NCBI GenBank assembly: GCA_944358805.1
Contig: CALVSD010000001.1
Coordinates: forward strand, 1 to 44,205
Source: an uncultured Bacilli bacterium
Lineage (GTDB): Bacteria > Bacillota_I > Bacilli_A > RF39 > UBA660
DNA: 44,205 nt
Reading direction: 5' to 3'
The notes under the pieces were generated by a model. That model ran no database searches. It was not told the origin of the DNA and was given only the letters and a program-made list of their open reading frames with translations. This document shows positions 1,422 through 43,003 of this stretch, piece after piece (within the stretch, counting starts at the first letter, position 1; each line of letters starts with the position of its first letter). The position numbers and the translations under genes are program-made.

Positions 1422-2093
1422 TCACAACCTTTCCCTAAAATTATTTGCAATATATATTACATAAGTCCCTAATATTAATATTATTATTTTTATAACATAT
1501 CGTATTACTAAAGACATCATCATTACATACAATGAACTGCTATTGAAATTTGTAATAAGCATAAAAATCATTACTTCAACAAAAGTAAAAATTAGAGCAG
1601 ACATTATGTTACTTATCCATATTTTATTTTTAATTTTTCTAAGTTGGTAATATATATAATTATTTACGTATAAACCTACTATAATAGATATAATATTTGC
1701 TAAAATATATTTTACACTTGAAAATAATATATTGTCATAAGTTAAGGAAGTAATATCGTTAAAATCACTCAAAATCATTCCACCAGAAAGTATTAATAAA
1801 CAAACAAATATAATACTGAAAGTAACTAACATTATCATGTTATTTTTTATATATTCATTACCTTTTTTTTGAATCAATATATTGTTTGCTATATAAATTG
1901 TAGAAGATATTCCTATTCCTAAAGACATGTTAATATTATTAATTTCTATATGTTTAATACACATTAGACTAGAAAGTATAAAAGCAATAACAATCCATAT
2001 ATATATGCCATCTTCTTTATATTTTTTATATGTATACAGTAGAAAAACATAAGAAAAAATCACTTCAAATATCAATAATATTACATTAATCAT
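1422..2093 (-). CDS. Polytopic membrane protein, VUT/DUF165 family (YhhQ-like queuosine-precursor or vitamin transporter), paralog 2
   Basis: About 220 aa and highly hydrophobic. YYQLRKIKNKIWISNIMSALIFTFVEVMIFMLITNF and LVIRYVIKIIILILGTYVIY parallel E. coli YhhQ segments (FNRLRQ..WWLAPTASTLFGNVSDTLAFFFIAF and VDYCFKVLISIVFFLPMY, recalled). The start overlaps the upstream paralog (ATGA). Confidence 0.55.
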   Translation of the reverse strand: MINVILLIFEVIFSYVFLLYTYKKYKEDGIYIWIVIAFILSSLMCIKHIEINNINMSLGIGISSTIYIANNILIQKKGNEYIKNNMIMLVTFSIIFVCLLILSGGMILSDFNDITSLTYDNILFSSVKYILANIISIIVGLYVNNYIYYQLRKIKNKIWISNIMSALIFTFVEVMIFMLITNFNSSSLYVMMMSLVIRYVIKIIILILGTYVIYIANNFRERL

Positions 2094-2749
2094 AGAGACT
2101 TCCTCCTATTAATCATATAATAAATAACAGGGATAAACATAATAGATAAGACTATTTTAAATAAATAATTTCCTAACCCTAATTTTATAGCAGCATCTAA
2201 TCCTATAATTCCAATATTAACTATTATATTAAACAATATACAATCAATAAATCCAATTAAAATTGTAGTTAAAGATATATTAATGAATAATACATCGCTA
2301 CTTTTTTTAATAATATTATAAATTTTATATGTACTATAAAACGATATTACAGTCATAATTGAATATAAAACTAATAATAAAATGTTTTTACTTAACATTT
2401 GATTTAAATTGGTAGTCACCAAGTCGGTTACTGATTGACTATATAAGAGAAACATAATTATTAATATTATAATAAATAATATATAAGAAGAAACCATAAA
2501 AATGTTTTTTTTCATGTCTTTAATATTAAGTTTCTCTGTAAAAATATATATAATTGATAATATTGAAACATAAGGTACTATCATAATGCTAAAATCTATA
2601 TTAAATACATTTACATTTTTAAATAAGAATATTACAGATAATAAATAATATAAAATAAATAAAATCTTTAACCCTGTTTTGTTAAACAAATGATATATCA
2701 AAGGGATACTAATCATACTTAAAATTAACATTATTATAAAAACTATCAT
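2090..2749 (-). CDS. Polytopic membrane protein, VUT/DUF165 family, paralog 1
   Basis: Same architecture as the neighbouring gene. FINISLTTILIGFIDCILFNIIV and LGNYLFKIVLSIMFIPVIYYM match the two C-terminal VUT motifs. AAGGAG RBS, with an extended -10 (TGATATAAT on the minus strand) roughly 30 nt upstream of the ATG, near 2780-2790 (exact position not indexed). Confidence 0.55.
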   Translation of the reverse strand: MIVFIIMLILSMISIPLIYHLFNKTGLKILFILYYLLSVIFLFKNVNVFNIDFSIMIVPYVSILSIIYIFTEKLNIKDMKKNIFMVSSYILFIIILIIMFLLYSQSVTDLVTTNLNQMLSKNILLLVLYSIMTVISFYSTYKIYNIIKKSSDVLFINISLTTILIGFIDCILFNIIVNIGIIGLDAAIKLGLGNYLFKIVLSIMFIPVIYYMINRRKSL

Positions 2750-11100: not shown

Positions 11101-11140
11101 AATCCTGTTTCTATGTCCAAGAAACAGGATTTCCATTAGA
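11101..11140 (-). terminator. Intrinsic terminator of the noc-like gene; the hairpin also faces the convergent PBP gene
   Basis: A 12-bp stem, AATCCTGTTTCT (11101-11112) pairing with AGAAACAGGATT (11120-11131). On the minus strand it is followed by TTTTTATAAG. The upstream arm encodes the last codons of the noc-like gene. Confidence 0.7.
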
Positions 11141-12559
11141 AATGGAATTCAAATTATTAACATCATCTTTCTTAATTTTTATTATTATTTGATATTCGTC
11201 AGCTAAATCTAATTCTTGCGTTTCTATTTTATTTCCAGCTTGTTTCATATTTGAAATCAATTCTCTTGTTTGATTAACTATTTTATTTAAATTAGATTTT
11301 GGTAATGAAGCTGGTGTAGATTCAGAATAAGGTTTAATATCATTATTTTGTTCTAGTGGATTACTTATATTGTTTCCAAAATTCATATTTACTGATTCGT
11401 CTTCTAATGAAGGGAAAAATTTATTTTCAAAATTGAATGCATTTTCTAATTTAGATGGAACTGTATTAGATTCTATAACGTTATTTAAAGGCGATTGTGT
11501 TTCTGGTTTTAATATGCTATTAAAATCTTCGCCATTGCTAGGTTGTTGCAAATTTGTAGAATTTGTATTTCTAGCTGCCTCTCTAATTGCTTCCATATCT
11601 ATTACCTGAGTTTTTTCTAGATTATCCTCTACTTTCGGTTCTAATTCATTAAATACATTAGAATTTGTATCAACTAAGTTTAATTCATTTAAAGCGTTTT
11701 GAACATTTGGATTGGCATTAGGTGTAGAAAAATTTGGAGTTGATTGAACTGTCATATTAGGATTACTTATATCTGCTATATTAACTACATCCGTATTTGG
11801 TTCTACAACATTATTGAATAATGAATTACTGTTACCAACATTGTTCTCAAACATATTTCTAGTTGCTATGGTATTCATATCATTATTCAAAAGATTTTCT
11901 GAAGGAATGGTAGAGCTAATACTAGTTTGACTACTATTAAACGGTTGTTGACCATTCATCATATTCTTTATTAATTCATCCGTATCTCTCACTGTTAATC
12001 TCTCCTCTATTATTTTGTTCAAAACTTCCCTTTGTTTCGCTGGATTATCTTTTAATTGCAATAAACTTCGTGCGTGTCTTTCAGAAATAGAATTATGTAA
12101 AAGAGCATCCTGTGCTTCAGGAACTAAATTTAATAACCTTAACTTATTGGCAATTGTTGACTGATTTTTTCCCATTTTGGCAGCTAATTGATCTTGGGTT
12201 AAATTACCTAAATCTAATAATTTTTTATATGATTTTGCTTCTTCAATTGGTGTTAAGTCCTTACGTTGAATATTTTCAATAATTGCTAATTCAGCGCTTG
12301 TTTGATCATCTAAATTAACAAGTATTGCTGGAACTTCTGTTAATCCTGCTAAAGTAGAAGCCTTATATCTTCTTTCACCTGCAATAATTTCATATTTGTC
12401 TCCTATTGGTCTTAATATTAATGGTTGTAATACTCCATACATCTTTATTGAACTTGCTAATTCATTTAATTCTTCTTCATTAAAAGCTAATCTTGGTTGA
12501 AATCTGTTTGGAATAATACTACTTAATTTTACTTTTACAACTTCTTTACCTGCTTCCAT
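11111..12559 (-). CDS. noc: ParB/Noc-family CTPase with a Noc-type DNA-recognition helix and a roughly 230-aa low-complexity insertion
   Basis: ParB N-domain (IIPNRFQPR, GVLQPLILRP, IIAGERRYKAS, which is the GERR CTP-binding box). The HTH, GKNQSTIANKLRLLNL...ISERHARSLL, matches B. subtilis Noc (GKGQSTIANKLRLLKL...ITERHARAL) and not Spo0J (GKSRPHIANHLRLLTL...SMGHGRTL). The C-terminus, NKIVNQTRELISNMKQAGNKIETQELDLADEYQIIIKIKK, parallels the Noc C-terminus. An Asn/Ser/Pro-rich stretch lies between the two. Confidence 0.8.
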   Translation of the reverse strand: MEAGKEVVKVKLSSIIPNRFQPRLAFNEEELNELASSIKMYGVLQPLILRPIGDKYEIIAGERRYKASTLAGLTEVPAILVNLDDQTSAELAIIENIQRKDLTPIEEAKSYKKLLDLGNLTQDQLAAKMGKNQSTIANKLRLLNLVPEAQDALLHNSISERHARSLLQLKDNPAKQREVLNKIIEERLTVRDTDELIKNMMNGQQPFNSSQTSISSTIPSENLLNNDMNTIATRNMFENNVGNSNSLFNNVVEPNTDVVNIADISNPNMTVQSTPNFSTPNANPNVQNALNELNLVDTNSNVFNELEPKVEDNLEKTQVIDMEAIREAARNTNSTNLQQPSNGEDFNSILKPETQSPLNNVIESNTVPSKLENAFNFENKFFPSLEDESVNMNFGNNISNPLEQNNDIKPYSESTPASLPKSNLNKIVNQTRELISNMKQAGNKIETQELDLADEYQIIIKIKKDDVNNLNSISNGNPVSWT

Positions 12560-12661
12560 ACAACATATCCCTCTTTCTATTTTTTTGCATACTATACTAA
12601 TATAATAATACTATATTTTTAATAAAAAAAAAAGACTATTTATAAATTTTAATAATCTTTT

Positions 12662-13627
12662 TTACGAATTTGGTCTTTTCTTAGTTCTTTGTCTTGTATT
12701 TTTTTTAGTTTGTGGTTGACCTGTTTGTTCTCTTTGATTGCAATCCCTAGTATTTCCATATAATTGGTTCCTTAACAAATATTGCGTTACATCATTTGGA
12801 TTACTCATACCATAAAATAAATTAGCATCTCCATTAGATAAAAATATTGTCTTTACCAATTCAAATTTAGTTGCATCATCAGTCTTCATATTTGCAATCT
12901 CATCTAAAATATTTCTTATTTCTCCTGCAAGAACTTTATTATCTGCAGTTCCTAATTTTTCTCTAACTTCAGCATCCTTTTCTGCTACTGCTAGTCTTGC
13001 TTCAGCCTCACAAATAGCAACCTTCTTTTTAGCGTCAGCTTCTGCTAATAATCTTGCATTTTCCATTTCTTGCATTGCTTTCTTTTCATAATCATCTTTC
13101 ATTGATTGTGGTAATTCAACTTGTTTAAAAGAAATATCATTTACTTTTAAACCTGTTTCATTTGTAAATAATTCATAATCTCTATTCAAATCAAAAGCAG
13201 ATAAATTATGAGTGCCGGTAATCATTTCTTCAGCTGTTTTTGAAGCCACATATTGTCTTAGTTTATCTCGTGTCTTAATTTTTAGTTCCTGCATAGGGTC
13301 GTTGTTATTAAACTCGTATTTTATTGGATCTACAACAGAAAACACAAGTGCTAAATCAACTGTAACTTCAATTCCATCAGAAGTCCTGTATTTTTCTTTA
13401 GGATAATCAATTGTATTTCTCGCTAAAGAAACCATTTTACTTTTTACCCAAAATCCCACTACAACTAATCCACTCGTCTTTACAAACGGCTTACCAGTAA
13501 ATATGTTTTGACATATTAAAGCCATGTTTGGCGGTACAGCCTTAAATACTCTTACTTTATAGCTACTAAAATCATCTACTTCTTCGCCTGCTCTTTCGTC
13601 AGTATTTCTTTTAAATAAATTTATCAT
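12662..13627 (-). CDS. SPFH/Band-7 domain protein (stomatin/flotillin superfamily) without an obvious TM segment; basic C-terminal tail
   Basis: TSDGIEVTVDLALVFSVVDPIKY, GLKVNDISFKQVELPQSM, and an Ala/Glu-rich coiled segment (LLAEADAKKKVAICEAEARLAVAEKDAEV) are typical of SPFH domains. GGGGGA RBS. Confidence 0.8.
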   Translation of the reverse strand: MINLFKRNTDERAGEEVDDFSSYKVRVFKAVPPNMALICQNIFTGKPFVKTSGLVVVGFWVKSKMVSLARNTIDYPKEKYRTSDGIEVTVDLALVFSVVDPIKYEFNNNDPMQELKIKTRDKLRQYVASKTAEEMITGTHNLSAFDLNRDYELFTNETGLKVNDISFKQVELPQSMKDDYEKKAMQEMENARLLAEADAKKKVAICEAEARLAVAEKDAEVREKLGTADNKVLAGEIRNILDEIANMKTDDATKFELVKTIFLSNGDANLFYGMSNPNDVTQYLLRNQLYGNTRDCNQREQTGQPQTKKNTRQRTKKRPNS

Positions 13628-13650: not shown

Positions 13651-13679
13651 ATTATAACACATTTGTTTGGTTTTGTCAA
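13651..13679 (-). promoter_or_regulatory. Consensus sigma-A promoter for the SPFH gene
   Basis: On the minus strand, TTGACA (13679-13674), a 17-nt spacer, then TATAAT (13656-13651). It lies immediately downstream of the rsmG stop codon. Confidence 0.75.
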
Positions 13680-19805: not shown

Positions 19806-21560
19806 ATGTTTAAAGAAATAGTAGAAATTAGTAAAAATTACGCGCTTGTTAAAATAAATGGTAATATTAATGAAGATTTACTTAACTATAATGTTGTATT
19901 TGAAGATGATAAAAAAATACTGGGAGAAATAGAAGAAATAAGTGGGGATACTGTTAAAATTACTTTTTTAGGTGAATTTATTAGTGGTAAATTTTATTCT
20001 GGTATTATTAGAAAACCTAGTTTAAATGCAACAGTTAGAATTATTAATCAAGAGGAATTAGGAGAAATAGTAGGGGACAATAACCCAAAAAGCATGACAT
20101 TAGGAATATCTCCTTTGTATAATTATCCAATTAAAATAGATATTGACGATATGTTTTCTAATCATAGTGCTATTTTTGGTAATACTGGTTCCGGTAAAAC
20201 GTATGGAGTAGCAAGACTTGTACAAAATCTATTTGTTATGAAAGATAAAATTCCTTTTAATAGTAATATTTTTATTTTTAATAACACTAGTGAATACGAT
20301 AATGCTTTTAAATCAATAAATAACATTAATGTTAATTATAATTATAAAATTTTTACTACTAATACAGAACAAAAAGAAGCTCCATTAATTAAATTGCCTT
20401 TATGGTTACTTAACGTAGATGATTATGCAAATTTATTAAATGTAACTGTTTATTCTCAAATTGCAATTATAGAGAAGATGTTAAGCTTAGTTTCTGTATT
20501 TGCTAGAAATGACGCTGAAAGCAAGAGATATAAGAATCACTTAATAGCTAAAGCTATCATTTCTGTAATGTATTCTAATCAAATGTCTGCCAGAATTAGA
20601 GATCAAATATTTTCTATTTTAACAGATTGTTATACTGATGAATTAAATTTAGATGTAGACGTTCCTGGTATAGGATATAAAAGACAGTTTAGAAAGTGTT
20701 TTGATTTAGATAGTAAAGGCGAATTTGTAGAAAGAATTCTAATAACAGAATATATTCAACAATTTATAGATAATAATACAAAATGGAATGAAGATTATGT
20801 ACCGGTTTATTTCACTCTAGATGATTTAGAAGTAGCTTTAAATTTTGCTTTAATTTCAGAAGGACTATTATTAAATGAAAAATCTTATGCAGAAGCAACT
20901 GCTTTAAAAGTAAGATTACATACACTAAATAACAGTTCTAATAGTATATTCTTTAAATATGATAGATTTATAAATTTAAATGAATTTATATCTAATATTA
21001 TATTAGTTGATAACAATAAAAGAGCTCAAATTATTAACTTCGTTTTAGAAGATATTGATGATAGATTTGCTAAAGCTTTAGTAAAAATATACTCTAGATT
21101 ATTATTTAAATTCTCTAAAGGATTACAAGATAGGGGATCGATACCAATTCATATTATGCTTGAAGAAGCCCACAGATATGTTCAAAAAGATTCAGATAAT
21201 GAATTACTTGGTTACAATATTTTTGAAAGAATAGCTAAAGAAGGACGTAAATTTGGTTTAGTTATAGATTTGATTACACAAAGACCAACAGAATTATCTG
21301 AAACTGTTATTTCTCAATGTAGTAATTTCTTAATTTTTAAAATTAACCATCCAACCGATTTAGAATATATTAGAAAAATGGTTCCTAATATTAGTGCTGA
21401 TGTCATAGAAAAACAAAAATCTTTACAATCTGGAACCTGTGTAGCATTTGGAAGAATGATGAAAATTCCAATGATTGTAAAAATGGAAATTCCAAATCCA
21501 GAACCTCATAGTTCTAATGCATCAATCTATAACAAATGGATGATTGAATGGAAAAGATAA
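19806..21560 (+). CDS. HerA-like (DUF87) ATPase with an N-terminal HAS-barrel-like domain; stand-alone
   Basis: Walker A is FGNTGSGKTYGV. Walker B region is IHIMLEEAHRY. KEGRKFGLVIDLITQRPTELSETVISQCSNFLIFKINHPTD is typical of HerA/DUF87 hexameric translocases. The N-terminal roughly 100 aa form a beta-rich barrel-like segment (VKINGN...LGEIEEISGDTVKITFLGE). Extended -10 TGATATAAT at 19771-19779 and an AGAGGGA RBS. Confidence 0.75.
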   Translation: MFKEIVEISKNYALVKINGNINEDLLNYNVVFEDDKKILGEIEEISGDTVKITFLGEFISGKFYSGIIRKPSLNATVRIINQEELGEIVGDNNPKSMTLGISPLYNYPIKIDIDDMFSNHSAIFGNTGSGKTYGVARLVQNLFVMKDKIPFNSNIFIFNNTSEYDNAFKSINNINVNYNYKIFTTNTEQKEAPLIKLPLWLLNVDDYANLLNVTVYSQIAIIEKMLSLVSVFARNDAESKRYKNHLIAKAIISVMYSNQMSARIRDQIFSILTDCYTDELNLDVDVPGIGYKRQFRKCFDLDSKGEFVERILITEYIQQFIDNNTKWNEDYVPVYFTLDDLEVALNFALISEGLLLNEKSYAEATALKVRLHTLNNSSNSIFFKYDRFINLNEFISNIILVDNNKRAQIINFVLEDIDDRFAKALVKIYSRLLFKFSKGLQDRGSIPIHIMLEEAHRYVQKDSDNELLGYNIFERIAKEGRKFGLVIDLITQRPTELSETVISQCSNFLIFKINHPTDLEYIRKMVPNISADVIEKQKSLQSGTCVAFGRMMKIPMIVKMEIPNPEPHSSNASIYNKWMIEWKR

Positions 21561-24559: not shown

Positions 24560-24657
24560 ATTAAAATTCAATTTTCTTGATATACGACATTTTTAGACAA
24601 ACTTCGACAAAGTAATGTGCTTTAATAAAAATCGTATTTTTGAAGGGGGGATTATTT

Positions 24658-25110
24658 ATGAGATATATAATAAACAAAAATACGTATATTATAAAAACAG
24701 AAGATAAGAGTACGACAAAAATTATTGAGAAAGGGAAAACTTTAAATAGAAAGGAAGATCCAGCGACTATTATAAGTGATTCCTGTAGTTATTATAGGTA
24801 TTCATTAAATTTTAGAGTGGAAGAAAGTAAGAAGCAATTCAAAAGCAATTACAAGAATCCTATTATAGTGGATAATGAAAGTAAAATAATTTTTTTTCCA
24901 ATTAAGTCTATTACAGCAAAAGATAATACTTGGATTTCTTATAATAATTTAGTAACCTTTTTAAGAAAGAAACATAATACTATACTAGTTTTCTTTGATG
25001 GAAGTACTATTATTGTACCCGTTAATTATAGTATTATATCTTCGCAAATATCTAAGTGTTTTATTTTAGAAAAAAAAATAGAAAAAAGTACTAATTTAAG
25101 TAAAATTTAG
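24658..25110 (+). CDS. ComK-family protein (competence transcription factor-like), short form
   Basis: KIIEKGKTL......IISDSCSYYRYSL......NYKNPIIVDNESKIIFFPIKSITAKDNTWISYNNL.....ILVFFDGSTIIVPVNYSIISSQ parallels B. subtilis ComK (KIIEKDCVF...IVDRSCRFFGSS...SHKPPIMVDPSNQIFLFPTLSSTRPQCGWISHVHV...EVTFSNGKTMELPISYNSFENQ, recalled). GAAGGGGGG RBS upstream of the ATG at 24658. Confidence 0.7.
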   Translation: MRYIINKNTYIIKTEDKSTTKIIEKGKTLNRKEDPATIISDSCSYYRYSLNFRVEESKKQFKSNYKNPIIVDNESKIIFFPIKSITAKDNTWISYNNLVTFLRKKHNTILVFFDGSTIIVPVNYSIISSQISKCFILEKKIEKSTNLSKI

Positions 25111-25212: not shown

Positions 25213-26310
25213 ATGGTAATAAAAAAAATTAAATTAAAAAATTATCGTAATTATGATGATTTAGAAATAGCATTAAATGAGAAATTAAATATTATTATAG
25301 GAAAAAATGCTCAAGGTAAAACAAATATATTAGAATCTATATATGTTTTATCTTTAACAAAATCTTATTTAAATATAAATGATAAAAATTTAATAAAGCT
25401 GGGGAATAATTATTCAATATTAGAAGCAGAAACAATACTAAATAATATCCCTAAAAAATTTAAAATTTTAATAAACGATAATGGAAAAAAAGTTATCATA
25501 AACGGAAGAGAAATAAAAAAATTAAGTGAATATATATCAAATTTGAAAGTTGTTATTTTTAGTCCTGAAAATATAAGAATGATTAGAGATGGTCCAAGTG
25601 TAAGAAGAAAATTTTTGAATATGGAACTTAGTCAAATATCTCCATTATATGTTAGACTATTGATGGATTACAATAATATAATTAGACAAAAAAATGAATA
25701 TTTAAAATTAGATAAAATAAATATAGAATATTTAAAAATTTTAAATAAAAAGATAGCTGAATTATCTGTTAATATATATATATATAGGAAAGAATTTATA
25801 GATAAACTTTGCAATTTTATAGATAATATCTATTATAAAATAATGGGAATTCAAGGACTTAGAATAAAATATATATCTAATATTGATTATTTTGAAGATA
25901 AATCAATGATGATTGCTAAATATACAGAAAAGTTAGAAAAATATTTAGAGAAAGAAATATTGTATAAAGTATCGTTAATAGGCCCACAAAGGGACGATTT
26001 TATTTTTGTACTAAATGATAAAAATATATCTTTATATGGTTCGCAAGGACAATTACGGAGTGTAATATTATCGTTAAAATTGTCAGAAATAGAATTAATA
26101 AAAAATGAATGTAATGAGGATCCGATATTGTTATTAGATGATATATTTAGTGAATTAGATATTGAAAAAAAGAATAATTTAATAAATTATATAAACGATA
26201 ATACTCAAACAATAATAACAACTACTGATATAAATATGATTGATGAAAAATTAGTTAAGAAAGCAAGTATTTTTGAAATAAATGATGGAAAATTATTTCC
26301 CGGGAAATAA
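25213..26310 (+). CDS. recF: DNA replication and repair protein RecF
   Basis: IKKIKLKNYRNYDDLEI...NIIIGKNAQGKTNILESIY (Walker A), GPQRDDF, GSQGQLRS (signature) and ILLLDDIFSELD (Walker B). The start at 25213 is inferred from the usual RecF N-terminus; the RBS is weak. Confidence 0.93.
   Translation: MVIKKIKLKNYRNYDDLEIALNEKLNIIIGKNAQGKTNILESIYVLSLTKSYLNINDKNLIKLGNNYSILEAETILNNIPKKFKILINDNGKKVIINGREIKKLSEYISNLKVVIFSPENIRMIRDGPSVRRKFLNMELSQISPLYVRLLMDYNNIIRQKNEYLKLDKINIEYLKILNKKIAELSVNIYIYRKEFIDKLCNFIDNIYYKIMGIQGLRIKYISNIDYFEDKSMMIAKYTEKLEKYLEKEILYKVSLIGPQRDDFIFVLNDKNISLYGSQGQLRSVILSLKLSEIELIKNECNEDPILLLDDIFSELDIEKKNNLINYINDNTQTIITTTDINMIDEKLVKKASIFEINDGKLFPGK
26294..26309. other. Noc-binding-site-like palindrome NBS-1 (TATTTCCCGGGAAATA), overlapping the last codons of recF
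   Basis: A perfect 16-mer inside a 22-bp perfect palindrome, AATTATTTCCCGGGAAATAATT (26291-26312), followed by TTTT. Confidence 0.7.
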
Positions 26311-26344
26311 TTTTAAGTAAAAAGCAATAAAAAATATAAAAAAA

Positions 26345-26360
26345 TATTTCCCGGGAAATA
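26345..26360. other. Noc-binding-site-like palindrome NBS-2 in the gyrB leader
   Basis: A perfect 16-mer TATTTCCCGGGAAATA inside a 22-bp palindrome, AAATATTTCCCGGGAAATATTT (26342-26363), 22 nt upstream of the gyrB ATG. Confidence 0.7.
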
Positions 26361-30746: not shown

Positions 30747-30767
30747 TTTTACTAAACTTCTTTTTTT
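30738..30767 (+). terminator. gyrA intrinsic terminator
   Basis: GAAATTTAGT-TTT-ACTAAACTTC hairpin (one A/C mismatch) overlapping the TAG stop, followed by a T7 run. Confidence 0.65.
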
Positions 30768-30786
30768 ATTAACTTAAGTTACAAAG

Positions 30787-30802
30787 TATTTCCCGGGAAA
30801 TA
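30787..30802. other. Noc-binding-site-like palindrome NBS-3
   Basis: A perfect TATTTCCCGGGAAATA. Confidence 0.7.
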
Positions 30803-30815
30803 TTTCCTGGAAATA
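30801..30815. other. Degenerate NBS-like palindrome NBS-4 (15-mer TATTTCCTGGAAATA), abutting NBS-3
   Basis: Same half-sites (TATTTCC/GGAAATA) with one central base missing. It shares TA with NBS-3. Confidence 0.45.
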
Positions 30816-30851
30816 TTTTATCTTTTACGCAAAGTAAACAGATGTTCGTGT

Positions 30852-30867
30852 TGTTTCACGTGAAACG
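30852..30867. other. parS: parS site 1 (TGTTTCACGTGAAACG)
   Basis: 15 of 16 match to the ParB/Spo0J consensus TGTTNCACGTGAAACA. Confidence 0.8.
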
Positions 30868-30970
30868 TAGTATAATAAAAAAAATGAAGATTTTAATGTG
30901 TTTTAAAATATTTATATTTATATGTGCAAGGGAACAATTAATAAATTATTATAAAAAATCTTGCACATTA

Positions 30971-30986
30971 TGTTTCACGTGAAACG
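30971..30986. other. parS: parS site 2 (TGTTTCACGTGAAACG)
   Basis: 15 of 16 match to the parS consensus. Confidence 0.8.
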
Positions 30987-31488
30987 TAATGTGGCATCTT
31001 AACATTTTGCAAGAAGAAAATTATAAAAATGTTTTATTAATAGCACAAACAAGGCGGAGCATCTACATTATTTTTATAATTTTGTCATTGCAATTTAAAC
31101 TAAACATCTTTTTATTAATATTAAAAATAAAAATACCATAAAATAAAATAAGTTGTGAATTAAATTTGCGAACTAAAATTTGCTTCATTTCTTTGTGTAG
31201 ATAAAAATATAATGCAACAAATATATAACAATTAAATATATAATATGGTAAAAAATAAATTAATTAAGAAAAAAAACAGTACTTAAAAACGTGTTAAAAC
31301 GATTGGGATATAGAATTAAAATAAAAAAATGAAGCTTGACGAATTAATTGATGATTAATTTGATGGAAATTTATTCGTTTTATGAACGATTTTATAATTA
31401 AAAAAATAATTTAAACGAAAAATAATATGAATTTGATAGGAGTCTGATTAGAAACAACAAATAAATGACAATATAATTTTTACAAACA

Positions 31489-31504
31489 TGTTTCACGTGA
31501 AACA
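31489..31504. other. parS: parS site 3 (TGTTTCACGTGAAACA, perfect)
   Basis: 16 of 16 match. It forms the core of a 30-bp perfect palindrome at 31482-31511. Confidence 0.85.
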
Positions 31505-31652
31505 TGTTTGTGTCTTGTTTTTTTTAAATAAAAATATATAATAATAGTTAAAAATAAATTTGTTGTACAGCTCAAATAATAAAGAATAGATAAAGCACAA
31601 CAGAAATATTAAATTTTATTTTATTGCTTTTTATAATAATTGTAATGAAAAA

Positions 31653-31668
31653 GGTTCCACGTGAAACA
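31653..31668. other. parS: parS site 4 (GGTTCCACGTGAAACA)
   Basis: 15 of 16 match. It is identical in 15 positions to the site inside B. subtilis spo0J (TGTTCCACGTGAAACA). It lies 15 nt upstream of the SRP RNA -35 box. Confidence 0.8.
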
Positions 31669-31682
31669 TATTCTAAAAACAT

Positions 31683-31711
31683 TTGTATAAATTACAAATA
31701 AATAGTATAAT
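31683..31711 (+). promoter_or_regulatory. Sigma-A promoter of the SRP RNA gene
   Basis: TTGTAT (31683-31688), a 17-nt spacer, then TATAAT (31706-31711). Confidence 0.7.
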
Positions 31712-31716
31712 GATAT

Positions 31717-31797
31717 TGCGCAACAATAATATTGGAAACGAGTCAGGATTGGAAAATAGCAGCTCTAACAAGAAAAATTGTGTGCGCTTATTTTTTT
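31717..31797 (+). ncRNA. ffs: Small (4.5S-type, about 80 nt) signal recognition particle RNA
   Basis: GAGUCAGGAUUGGAAAAUAGCAGCUC reproduces the universal domain IV of E. coli 4.5S RNA (GGUCAGGUCCGGAAGGAAGCAGCC). The GGAA tetraloop, the CAGG/AGCA symmetric loop and the closing U-G pair are all present. The UCC/GGA stem is replaced by the compensatory AUU/AAU. The terminal helix GCGCAACAA (31718-31726) pairs with UUGUGUGCGC (31778-31787) and is followed by a U-run. Confidence 0.85.
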
Positions 31798-31824
31798 GTA
31801 AAAATAAAGAGGTAGATCGATATA

Positions 31825-38978: not shown

Positions 38979-38994
38979 TATTTCCCAGGAAATA
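38979..38994. other. Noc-binding-site-like palindrome NBS-5 (TATTTCCCAGGAAATA)
   Basis: 15 of 16 match. It sits inside AATTATTTCCCAGGAAATAATT (38976-38997), which differs by one base from the 22-mer at the end of recF. It starts 4 nt after the pth stop codon. Confidence 0.6.
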
Positions 38995-42413: not shown

Positions 42414-42472
42414 TTCTTTTTTGTATAAATTTATATATATTTAACACAATAATATTAGAAATGGAGGAATAT

Positions 42473-43003
42473 ATGAAAACAACAGGAATAATAAGGAGAA
42501 TTGATGAATTGGGTAGAATAGTAATTCCTAAGGAAATTAGAAAAAATATGCGAATTGATAATGGTGAGAGCCTTGAAATATTTATTGATGAAGATAATAT
42601 AATTTTAAAAAAATATTCTCCGATTGAAAGTTTAAATTCTGTAGCAGAAAAATACGTTGATATATTTAATCAAGTTATTAAACATAATGTTATTGTAACG
42701 GATAGAAATAAGGTAATAGCAATAGCAGGGAATTTAAAGAAGCAATATTTAAATAAAGAAATAAGTGAATTTACTAGCCATTCAATTGATAGACGAGATA
42801 GTTTTGTTGAAAGACAAAAAAATTCTTTTGAAATAGTAAAGGGTATAAATGAGGTAGGCTATTATTCATTTAGTTCTATCGTTAATAACGGTGATGCAAT
42901 TGGTTCAGTAATAATAGTTTCAACTGATTATCCAATATTAGAGGGAGATGAAAAAATGGCTGTAATACTATCAAAAATATTATCAAAGTACTTTATAAAC
43001 TGA
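42473..43003 (+). CDS. spoVT: Stage V sporulation protein T (AbrB-type N-domain plus GAF-like domain)
   Basis: MKTTGIIRRIDELGRIVIPKEIRKNMRIDNGESLEIF is nearly identical in pattern to the B. subtilis SpoVT N-terminus. About 176 aa. mfd-spoVT synteny. GGAGGA RBS upstream of the ATG at 42473. Confidence 0.9.
   Translation: MKTTGIIRRIDELGRIVIPKEIRKNMRIDNGESLEIFIDEDNIILKKYSPIESLNSVAEKYVDIFNQVIKHNVIVTDRNKVIAIAGNLKKQYLNKEISEFTSHSIDRRDSFVERQKNSFEIVKGINEVGYYSFSSIVNNGDAIGSVIIVSTDYPILEGDEKMAVILSKILSKYFIN

Follow-up and report, generated by a model that had tools for sequence, protein, structure and literature searches.

Noc-type proteins of a large clade of gut Bacilli lack the N-terminal membrane-targeting helix and carry a long acidic linker with conserved motifs

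We have analysed a stretch of 44,205 nucleotides of DNA from an uncultured Bacilli bacterium (assembly GCA_944358805.1, contig CALVSD010000001.1), hereafter called the window, and our subject is a gene within it that encodes a ParB-family protein related to Noc, the factor of nucleoid occlusion. The window is a replication-origin region with a G+C (GC) content of 25%. The genes lie in the order rnpA-yidC-jag-mnmE-mnmG-rsmG-SPFH-noc-like on one side and dnaA-dnaN-comK-recF-gyrB-gyrA on the other, with the SPFH gene placed between rsmG and the noc-like gene, and with no soj-spo0J following. Perfect copies of the Noc-binding site (NBS) are found in the same DNA. The encoded protein has the motifs that bind cytidine triphosphate (CTP) and the NBS-reading residues of Noc, but it has no amphipathic helix at its N terminus, and its DNA-binding and C-terminal domains are separated by a very long acidic linker. 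The features are collected in Table 1.

The reading frame begins with an ATG codon that has AAGAGGG 9 nt on its 5' side. An in-frame stop lies 17 codons 5' of this ATG with no ATG, GTG or TTG in between, in agreement with the initial annotation, which had found no in-frame start further upstream. That annotation had also recognized a ParB N-domain with the GERR box, and both are present at the residues listed in Table 1. It had further aligned the last part of the protein with the C-terminal domain of Noc. Residues 424-464 do align to positions 215-255 of the Noc model TIGR04285 (E = 9e-4), and in the AlphaFold2 (AF2) model the domain is a helix and two strands with a predicted local distance difference test (pLDDT) score of 83-96, so that this segment is a predicted dimerization domain of the ParB/Noc type. 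It is not, however, the very end of the chain, which is closed by a tail of 18 amino acids that is not conserved.

Table 1. Features of the noc-like gene, its product and the binding sites in the window. Positions are those of the window; residues are those of the 482-aa protein.
Feature	Position	Strand	Basis or remark
Noc-clade ParB-family gene	11111..12559	minus	482 aa + stop codon; open reading frame list, Pfam and NCBIfam matches
Ribosome-binding site GAAAGAGGG	12569..12577	minus	9 nt before ATG
ParB N-terminal CTP-binding domain, residues 6-98	12266..12544	minus	Pfam PF02195 ParB_N, E = 1.8e-31
PNRFQPR, residues 17-23; GERR, residues 61-64	12368-12379 (GERR)	minus	inside the ParB_N part
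ENIQR motif, residues 95-99	12263-12277	minus	extends 3 bases beyond the lower bound of the ParB_N part
Helix-turn-helix (HTH) DNA-binding domain, residues 100-201	11957..12262	minus	Pfam PF17762 HTH_ParB, E = 1.9e-33
Specificity residues Q133, K139, N144, R161	within 12068-12172	minus	signature QKNR
Acidic disordered linker, 218 aa, Asn/Ser/Glu/Pro-rich, residues 203-420	11300..11953	minus	AF2 pLDDT, composition, charge
Linker motif E DVVNIADISNPNM, consensus [FV]NIxD[IL]SNP	11753..11791	minus	column conservation; short predicted helix 261-265
Linker motif D VQNALNELNLVDTNSNVFNELEPKVED	11624..11704	minus	conserved only among closer relatives
Linker motif A KTQVIDMEAIREAARN, consensus NPGFMDIxKIExxAxDI	11567..11614	minus	96% column occupancy; predicted helix 322-331
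Linker motif B EDFNSILKP, consensus P[ND]FDSLL[KQ]	11504..11530	minus	predicted helix 346-350
Linker motif C FNFENKFFPSLEDESVNMNF, consensus [GN][KR][FY]F[NP]S[LF]E[DE]E	11378..11437	minus	FF 70-76% conserved
Noc/ParB-type C-terminal (predicted dimerization) domain, residues 421-464	11168..11299	minus	one helix + two strands
C-terminal tail, 18 aa, not conserved	11114..11167	minus	occupancy <10% in family alignment
SPFH/Band-7 gene	12662..13627	minus	between rsmG and the noc-like gene
Extended promoter TTGACA-17-TATAAT, perfect	13651-13679	minus	5' of the SPFH gene
Perfect 16-bp NBS TATTTCCCGGGAAATA	26294..26309		overlaps recF end
Perfect NBS	26345..26360		22 nt 5' of gyrB start codon
Perfect NBS	30787..30802		just 3' of gyrA; followed by a degenerate second copy (30787-30820 together)
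NBS variant TATTTCCCAGGAAATA, 1 mismatch	38979..38994		after pth; also 5' of the noc-like gene in relatives
parS cluster, four sites: 30852, 30971, 31489, 31653	30852..31668		non-coding gap after gyrA

The protein had been assigned initially to the Noc type and not the ParB type, and the following comparisons are in accord with this. It scores 283.1 bits against TIGR04285, the Noc model of NCBIfam, compared with 171 bits against the model parB_part. When the linker is spliced out it spans the Noc model from end to end (1-255 of 255) with 295.6 bits, and parB_part gives 171-173 bits. The best sequence match in the PDB is Noc from G. thermoleovorans (7NG0, 7NFU; E = 3.9e-60), which is also the best Foldseek match, with a TM-score (TMt) of 0.75, and comparison with the Noc DNA-binding domain 6Y93 gives TMt values of 0.89-0.91. 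A simple neighbor-joining tree of the N-terminal and DNA-binding domains, in which canonical Noc is represented by two sequences, recovers the family of the protein with a bootstrap value of 86% and unites it with Bacillus and Geobacillus Noc with 94%, the ParB proteins lying outside. On this tree the clade would be the sister of Bacillus/Geobacillus Noc. The protein agrees with Noc in specificity residues, cognate sites, phylogeny and gene position, but it scores below the curated family cut-off and lacks the N-terminal helix. We have therefore classified it within a sister clade of Noc and not simply as one more Noc. Current annotation misses this clade, the members being named in NCBI only as 'ParB/RepB/Spo0J family partition protein', a generic ParB label, and in our literature searches we met with no account of a Noc that lacks the helix and has a long linker.

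The specificity for DNA can be predicted from the recognition region (GKNQSTIANKLRLLNL...SERHAR), where Q133, K139, N144 and R161 occupy the positions equivalent to 173, 179, 184 and 201 of Noc. The signature Q-K-N-R is identical to the Q-K-K-R of Noc at three of four positions, and that of the family is Q-K-[N/S/A/T]-R. In Noc, Q173 recognizes adenine 1 of the NBS and R201 cytosine 6, and one permissive lysine at either 179 or 184 suffices for NBS binding (Jalal et al. 2020, PMC7383237). Since K179 is kept, the asparagine at position 184 is no obstacle to the predicted NBS specificity. Thus the earlier view of a region that is Noc-like at three of four positions is confirmed for Q, K and R, while the asparagine that it had set apart presents no problem, given both the published specificity data and the three perfect NBS in the window.

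The window contains these three perfect sites and one with a single mismatch, where 0.37 would be expected. All three CCCGGG hexamers of the window lie inside an NBS, all four CACGTG hexamers lie inside a parS site, and there are no NBS/parS hybrid sites in the window. The presence of two discrete classes of site implies two binders, and the window has just one ParB-family gene, that with the NBS signature. Neither a parA gene nor a second parB gene is found in the 44 kb, and so the parS sequences must be the sites of a canonical ParB encoded outside the window. In 1.09 Mb of DNA from the loci of family members there are 10 NBS cores (6 exact), compared with 0-4 (0 exact) for eight control palindromes, and seven of the 10 are located 160-300 bp 5' of the noc-like gene. 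These counts cover origin-proximal DNA only.

Some further observations concern the sites themselves. Two perfect NBS 51 bp apart flank the recF stop codon and the gyrB ribosome-binding site (26294-26360), and a clamp loaded at this pair and spreading from it could affect the expression of gyrB. A variant NBS in which the center reads CCCAGG, ATTTCCCAGGAAAT, is found again in several distant loci of the family, either at the 3' end of rsmG or just 5' of the noc-like gene (L020, 9712-9727; L022, 9717-9732; L093, ~1081; L097, ~4907; in the window, 38979), and may be an alternative site typical of the clade. The non-coding gap of 1.1 kb located 3' of gyrA (30747-31824) holds the four parS sites, a perfect NBS with its degenerate copy, and a small signal recognition particle RNA (31707-31803; 53 bits), which is the sole Rfam match in the window. 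In one relative (L003) two parS sites likewise follow gyrA.

The elements of the CTP switch are almost perfectly preserved. Among 150 aligned family members there is no variation at G61, E62, R63, R64 and R99, and conservation reaches 90% or more at E95, N96 and Q98, so that the PNRFQPR, GERR and ENIQR motifs are all either invariant or at least 90% conserved. The same is true of G442, E449, D451, Y456 and K464 in the C-terminal domain, each of which reaches at least 90%. R64 and N96 correspond to R89 and N121 of B. subtilis Noc, and mutation of these abolishes CTP binding, spreading and function (PMC8429893). Since the motifs are near-invariant and include the equivalents of these two residues, we infer that the protein would behave as a CTP-dependent clamp.

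The short N terminus and the long linker were initially regarded as atypical, but they turn out to be the rule in a very large uncultured clade. We searched 1.84 billion representative sequences exhaustively with residues 1-205, and took the best 150 clusters at 50% identity. Nearly all of these share the same design, with 14-21 residues before the PNRFQPR box, the signature Q-K-x-R, a conserved C-terminal domain and a total length of 245-848 aa, and the architecture is common to all of the nearest 120 database clusters. More than 150 clusters at 50% identity, from uncultured gut Bacilli, combine the short N terminus and Q-K-x-R with a linker of 72-603 aa. The metagenome-assembled genomes from which they come are labelled as uncultured 'Bacilli bacterium' and derive from human and animal gut.

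Canonical Noc from B. subtilis and Geobacillus, whose sequences we verified against PDB chains 7OL9 and 7NFU, begins MKHSFSRFFGLGEKE and has 37-39 residues before the PN of the PNRFQPR box. In the protein from the window 16 residues precede P17, equivalent to 14 before IIPNRFQPR. The absence of the Noc helix noted initially is therefore real, although the N terminus is somewhat longer than the ~10 residues given at that time. In 90 loci of the family an in-frame stop codon lies 15-39 codons before the box, and in 87 of them the longest possible N terminus is 10-19 aa. Because the upstream stops impose this limit, the 26-residue extension of Noc is not encodable in the reading frames of the family. 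This rules out a longer N terminus arising from an upstream or non-canonical start, both here and in 87 of the 90 loci, a possibility that had been raised for the relatives. Database versions of 500 aa that start MFKIYFF are over-extensions of 473-aa proteins by the gene caller. Residues 1-11 of the protein have a hydrophobic moment of 0.30 and a hydrophobicity of 0.09, compared with 0.50 and 0.58 for the B. subtilis Noc helix. A hydrophobic-moment scan of the complete protein gave matches only to helices of the folded domains or to acidic linker segments of low hydrophobicity. Outside the folded domains there is no segment that joins hydrophobicity, amphipathicity and positive charge in the manner of the Noc helix, and this speaks against a membrane-targeting helix elsewhere in the protein. 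Since canonical Noc and the outgroup ParB proteins both have an N-terminal peptide at this place, loss of the helix in the clade would be a more economical reading than its gain elsewhere.

The linker comprises 218 aa, rather than the ~230 first estimated; the description of it as greatly expanded and probably disordered holds, but it is not featureless, for it carries conserved motifs. It contains 21% asparagine and 11% serine and has a net charge of -19. Across the family the linkers vary from 72 to 603 aa (median 251), abound in N, E, P and S, and are acidic without exception (mean charge per residue, -0.13). In AF2 models of the protein and of a relative with a shorter linker (P0021) the N-terminal, DNA-binding and C-terminal domains are predicted with confidence, and the linker is disordered in both save for a few short helices (pLDDT mostly <60 in the protein from the window). 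The GC content of the DNA encoding the linker is 0.29, compared with 0.30 for that encoding the domains. The possibility that the low-complexity block is an artefact of assembly is ruled out by the finding of exactly the same 482-aa protein on 12 independently assembled contigs from several samples.

We assessed the enrichment of the motifs by counting matches to regular expressions in real and shuffled linkers, since profile hidden Markov models of single short motifs have too little power. Motif A was found in 64-82 of 175 linkers (0.3-4.8 in shuffles), motif B in 61 (1.1 in shuffles) and motif C in 76-114 (4-20 in shuffles). The three are 10- to 190-fold above the shuffles, and the order A, B, C is almost always kept. 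The column conservation of motif E is comparable to that of A-C; it rests on the alignment columns, the shuffle counts covering A-C. Motif C resembles the sequence SRFFGLGEKE at the N terminus of canonical Noc in having a basic residue, FF, a hydrophobic residue and an acidic run, and in 58 of 114 linkers it is the best ungapped match to the canonical 14-mer, in a test that is partly circular with the definition of the motif. Motif C might be an internalized form of the RFF membrane/autoinhibition element of Noc. In the protein from the window the match is weak and the local positive charge is low, and we keep the idea of a relocated Noc N terminus only as a lead. Motif B may have a likeness to the C-terminal peptide of FtsZ, or to the GLxALL peptide of ParB.

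The position of the gene is that of noc. We scored 69 loci of relatives, each with at least 1.2 kb of upstream sequence, and rsmG lies directly 5' of the noc-like gene in 47 of these. One locus (L102) has the complete B. subtilis order mnmG-rsmG-noc-like-soj-spo0J, in which the noc-like gene encodes 514 aa with the signature QKAR, and spo0J has the signature RTSG and the N terminus RKALGKGLEELF. Separate ParA and ParB proteins are encoded within 10 kb in 10 of 37 long loci, and the true ParBs of the relatives have an RTNG or RTSG signature together with the N terminus KALGKGLEELF. On the downstream side the neighbors of the noc-like gene vary, being spoIIR, dnaA, uvrB, a GH25 gene, a penicillin-binding protein gene or soj. 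Since a perfect promoter precedes the SPFH gene in the window, this gene and the noc-like gene are probably co-transcribed as an operon. The SPFH protein has no obvious transmembrane segment, begins MINLFKRN and has a basic C-terminal tail. It was considered as a general membrane partner and rejected, as it is adjacent in just one of the 69 scored loci; the arrangement is confined to the closest relatives (L005, L006) and to L017-L019, which have the identical protein.

Other genes of the region are recorded here in their own right. A HerA/DUF87-type ATPase gene (19806-21560, plus strand) lies between rpmH/rnpA and dnaA, immediately at the origin, with the same placement in L008 and L017, and matches the NCBIfam anti-phage/repair HerA models far below their cut-offs. 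A ComK-family gene (24640-25110, plus strand) lies between dnaN and recF, as it does in L003, L020 and L022, so that an origin-proximal position of comK appears to be conserved in the lineage. Two tandem paralogs of membrane proteins like the queuosine-precursor transporter (1422-2749, minus strand) are both below the NCBIfam cut-off. The window encodes SpoVT (42461-43003, plus strand) and in L001 a SpoIIR gene adjoins the noc-like gene (11213-11734), which suggests endospore formation in these low-GC Bacilli; the members of the clade probably form spores.

We consider it somewhat better than an even chance, with a probability of about 0.6, that the protein is an NBS-specific, CTP-gated ortholog of Noc belonging to a large clade of low-GC gut Bacilli, with its effector function residing in the motifs of the linker and not in an amphipathic helix. 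It would nucleate on NBS, bind CTP, close to form a sliding clamp and spread, as Noc does. Membrane binding in the manner of Noc would not be possible, as there is no 10-aa amphipathic helix, no helix α2 or loop, and no other basic amphipathic segment. Since that route appears closed, the output would most likely be exerted through the acidic disordered linker, with at least three colinear short motifs, A, B and C. These are probable docking sites for partners, such as a membrane-associated or division protein, unless motif C is itself the internalized RFF element. The great length of the linker would in addition enlarge the compartment of the clamp in which DNA is held. Either a partner restores the link to the membrane or the divisome, or the function has shifted. 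The suggestion in the initial annotation that either membrane recruitment or the role of the protein must differ is reasonable, and the motifs give its idea of a linker-borne function a concrete form, without proving it. A more specific version is that a modular effector linker has replaced the Noc helix and couples NBS-bound clamps to the membrane or the division machinery, by protein contacts or through motif C. For example, motif B might imitate the C-terminal peptide of FtsZ and so occupy FtsA or SepF. We hold this version only tentatively, and think it rather less probable than not.

A number of observations weigh against the assignment of a Noc ortholog acting through its linker. The protein is below the curated TIGR04285 cut-off of 315 bits even without its linker, as are its relatives (283-290 bits). 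The AF2 models of the protein and of P0021 show no docking of the motifs onto the domains, the motifs having pLDDT values of 45-76, and the acidic flanks of motif C speak against a direct contact with anionic lipids. Rather than recruiting partners, the motifs could have a regulatory role within the protein itself. NBS are sparse in the loci of relatives, at about one per 100 kb around the gene, and in the family loci examined no conserved neighboring gene marks a partner.

The principal rival is a clamp derived from Noc that takes no part in nucleoid occlusion and acts near the origin, either in the control of replication initiation or, from a small number of NBS, in autoregulation and long-range transcriptional silencing like that of KorB. 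The four NBS-type sites of the window are all found no more than 17 kb from dnaA, with one placed directly before the gyrB ribosome-binding site, and the sites 160-300 bp 5' of the noc-like gene in seven relatives are just what autoregulation predicts. Moreover, S. aureus Noc controls replication initiation (PMC5540599) and helix-less B. subtilis Noc is inactive in occlusion (PMC8429893). However, the clustering may be an effect of sampling, since the DNA covered is origin-proximal, and NBS show a similar enrichment towards the origin in the chromosomes of B. subtilis and S. aureus. A simple repressor would in any case leave the conserved multi-motif linker unexplained, and we regard this explanation as unlikely, if clearly the most serious of the rivals.

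Two other explanations are weaker still. The linker could be a neutral low-complexity expansion in an AT-rich genome, with the helix-less Noc weakly functional or redundant and the motifs functionless remnants. The enormous spread of length, an asparagine-rich composition of the kind expected at 25% GC and the low AF2 confidence are consistent with this. Against it, motifs A, B and C persist in the same order at ~40% overall identity and well above their frequency in shuffled linkers, strong conservation in more than 150 clusters extends to the CTP motifs, the residues of specificity and the C-terminal domain, and the GC content of the linker DNA equals that of the domains. We therefore think neutral expansion improbable. 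It is much less probable again that the protein is simply the chromosome-partition ParB (Spo0J) of its host, a centromere binder and not a Noc. The lack of a ParA or second ParB gene in the window, the presence there of parS sites, and the NCBI name would all suit such a role. Yet glutamine replaces the invariant parS-reading R173 and arginine replaces G201, the ParA-interacting N-terminal peptide is lacking, canonical ParA and ParB are separately present in relatives, parS and NBS form discrete classes in the window, and the tree places the protein with Noc. Together these leave little room for a partition protein.

In the two species where it has been studied, Noc is thought to tie DNA to the membrane through a 10-residue helix, the removal of which abolishes function. 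Here a very large and conserved sister clade is naturally without that helix but has retained the CTP switch, the residues that read the NBS and the sites themselves, which shows that not all Noc-type proteins have such a helix. This amounts to a natural experiment. The linker may supply another link to the membrane or to division, which would name a protein target for Noc, or alternatively the same DNA clamp is used for something else. If a modular effector linker has indeed taken the place of the helix, nucleoid occlusion by Noc would need no amphipathic helix of its own, and evolution would be able to exchange the effector part of a ParB-family CTP switch. The clade also provides an example, across a whole family, of the way in which the linker closing the ParB clamp can lengthen, by 5- to 40-fold.

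It is instructive to compare the protein with known systems. SlmA of Escherichia coli is a site-specific DNA binder that blocks division over the nucleoid through contact with the tail of FtsZ and without a membrane tether, and the linker motifs could act likewise. SlmA has an unrelated, TetR-family fold, however, and is at most a functional analogue. KorB of plasmid RK2 (8QA8/8QA9) is a ParB-family clamp as well, with an output that needs a partner and sliding from a few sites near promoters. Its identity to the protein is only 26-27%, it binds other DNA sites and it lacks a disordered linker of this kind, and the likeness is confined to a possible way of working. Chromosomal ParB (Spo0J) has the same fold, CTP switch, sliding-clamp architecture and HTH domain, but it differs in having the parS-specific R173 and G201, the N-terminal peptide LGKGLxxLF that stimulates ParA, a linker that is short and a partner gene, parA; in relatives a separate protein combines all of these.

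The closest comparison is with Noc itself (B. subtilis, G. thermoleovorans and S. aureus; TIGR04285; 7NFU, 7NG0, 7OL9 and 6Y93). The three-domain core is the same, with ~50% identity over 200 residues, as are the CTP motifs, the residues equivalent to Q173, K179 and R201, the type of C-terminal domain, and the position of the gene after rsmG and before soj-spo0J; the identical 16-bp NBS occurs in the genome studied here. The present protein differs in scoring below the curated cut-off of the Noc family, and K184 of Noc is N, S, T or A in the clade. The linker of Noc is short (~15 aa) and basic, QRKPKPRRKAFSRD, whereas that of the clade is long, acidic, disordered and motif-bearing. Above all, Noc has the 26-residue N-terminal extension, comprising the amphipathic α1, the conserved α2 and a loop, that is needed for membrane binding and occlusion in B. 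subtilis and that the present protein is without. Engineered truncations provide the nearest equivalent. NocNΔ10 does not bind to liposomes and fails in the complementation of a noc minCD double mutant, but CTP binding and closure of the N-domain gate are retained in both NocNΔ10 and NocNΔ26 (Jalal et al. 2021, PMC8429893). The protein from the window starts at essentially the same point as NocNΔ26, a few residues before strand β1. Unlike the engineered truncations, the helix-less proteins that occur naturally are presumably functional, because they are conserved across a large clade, and they have an additional long linker.

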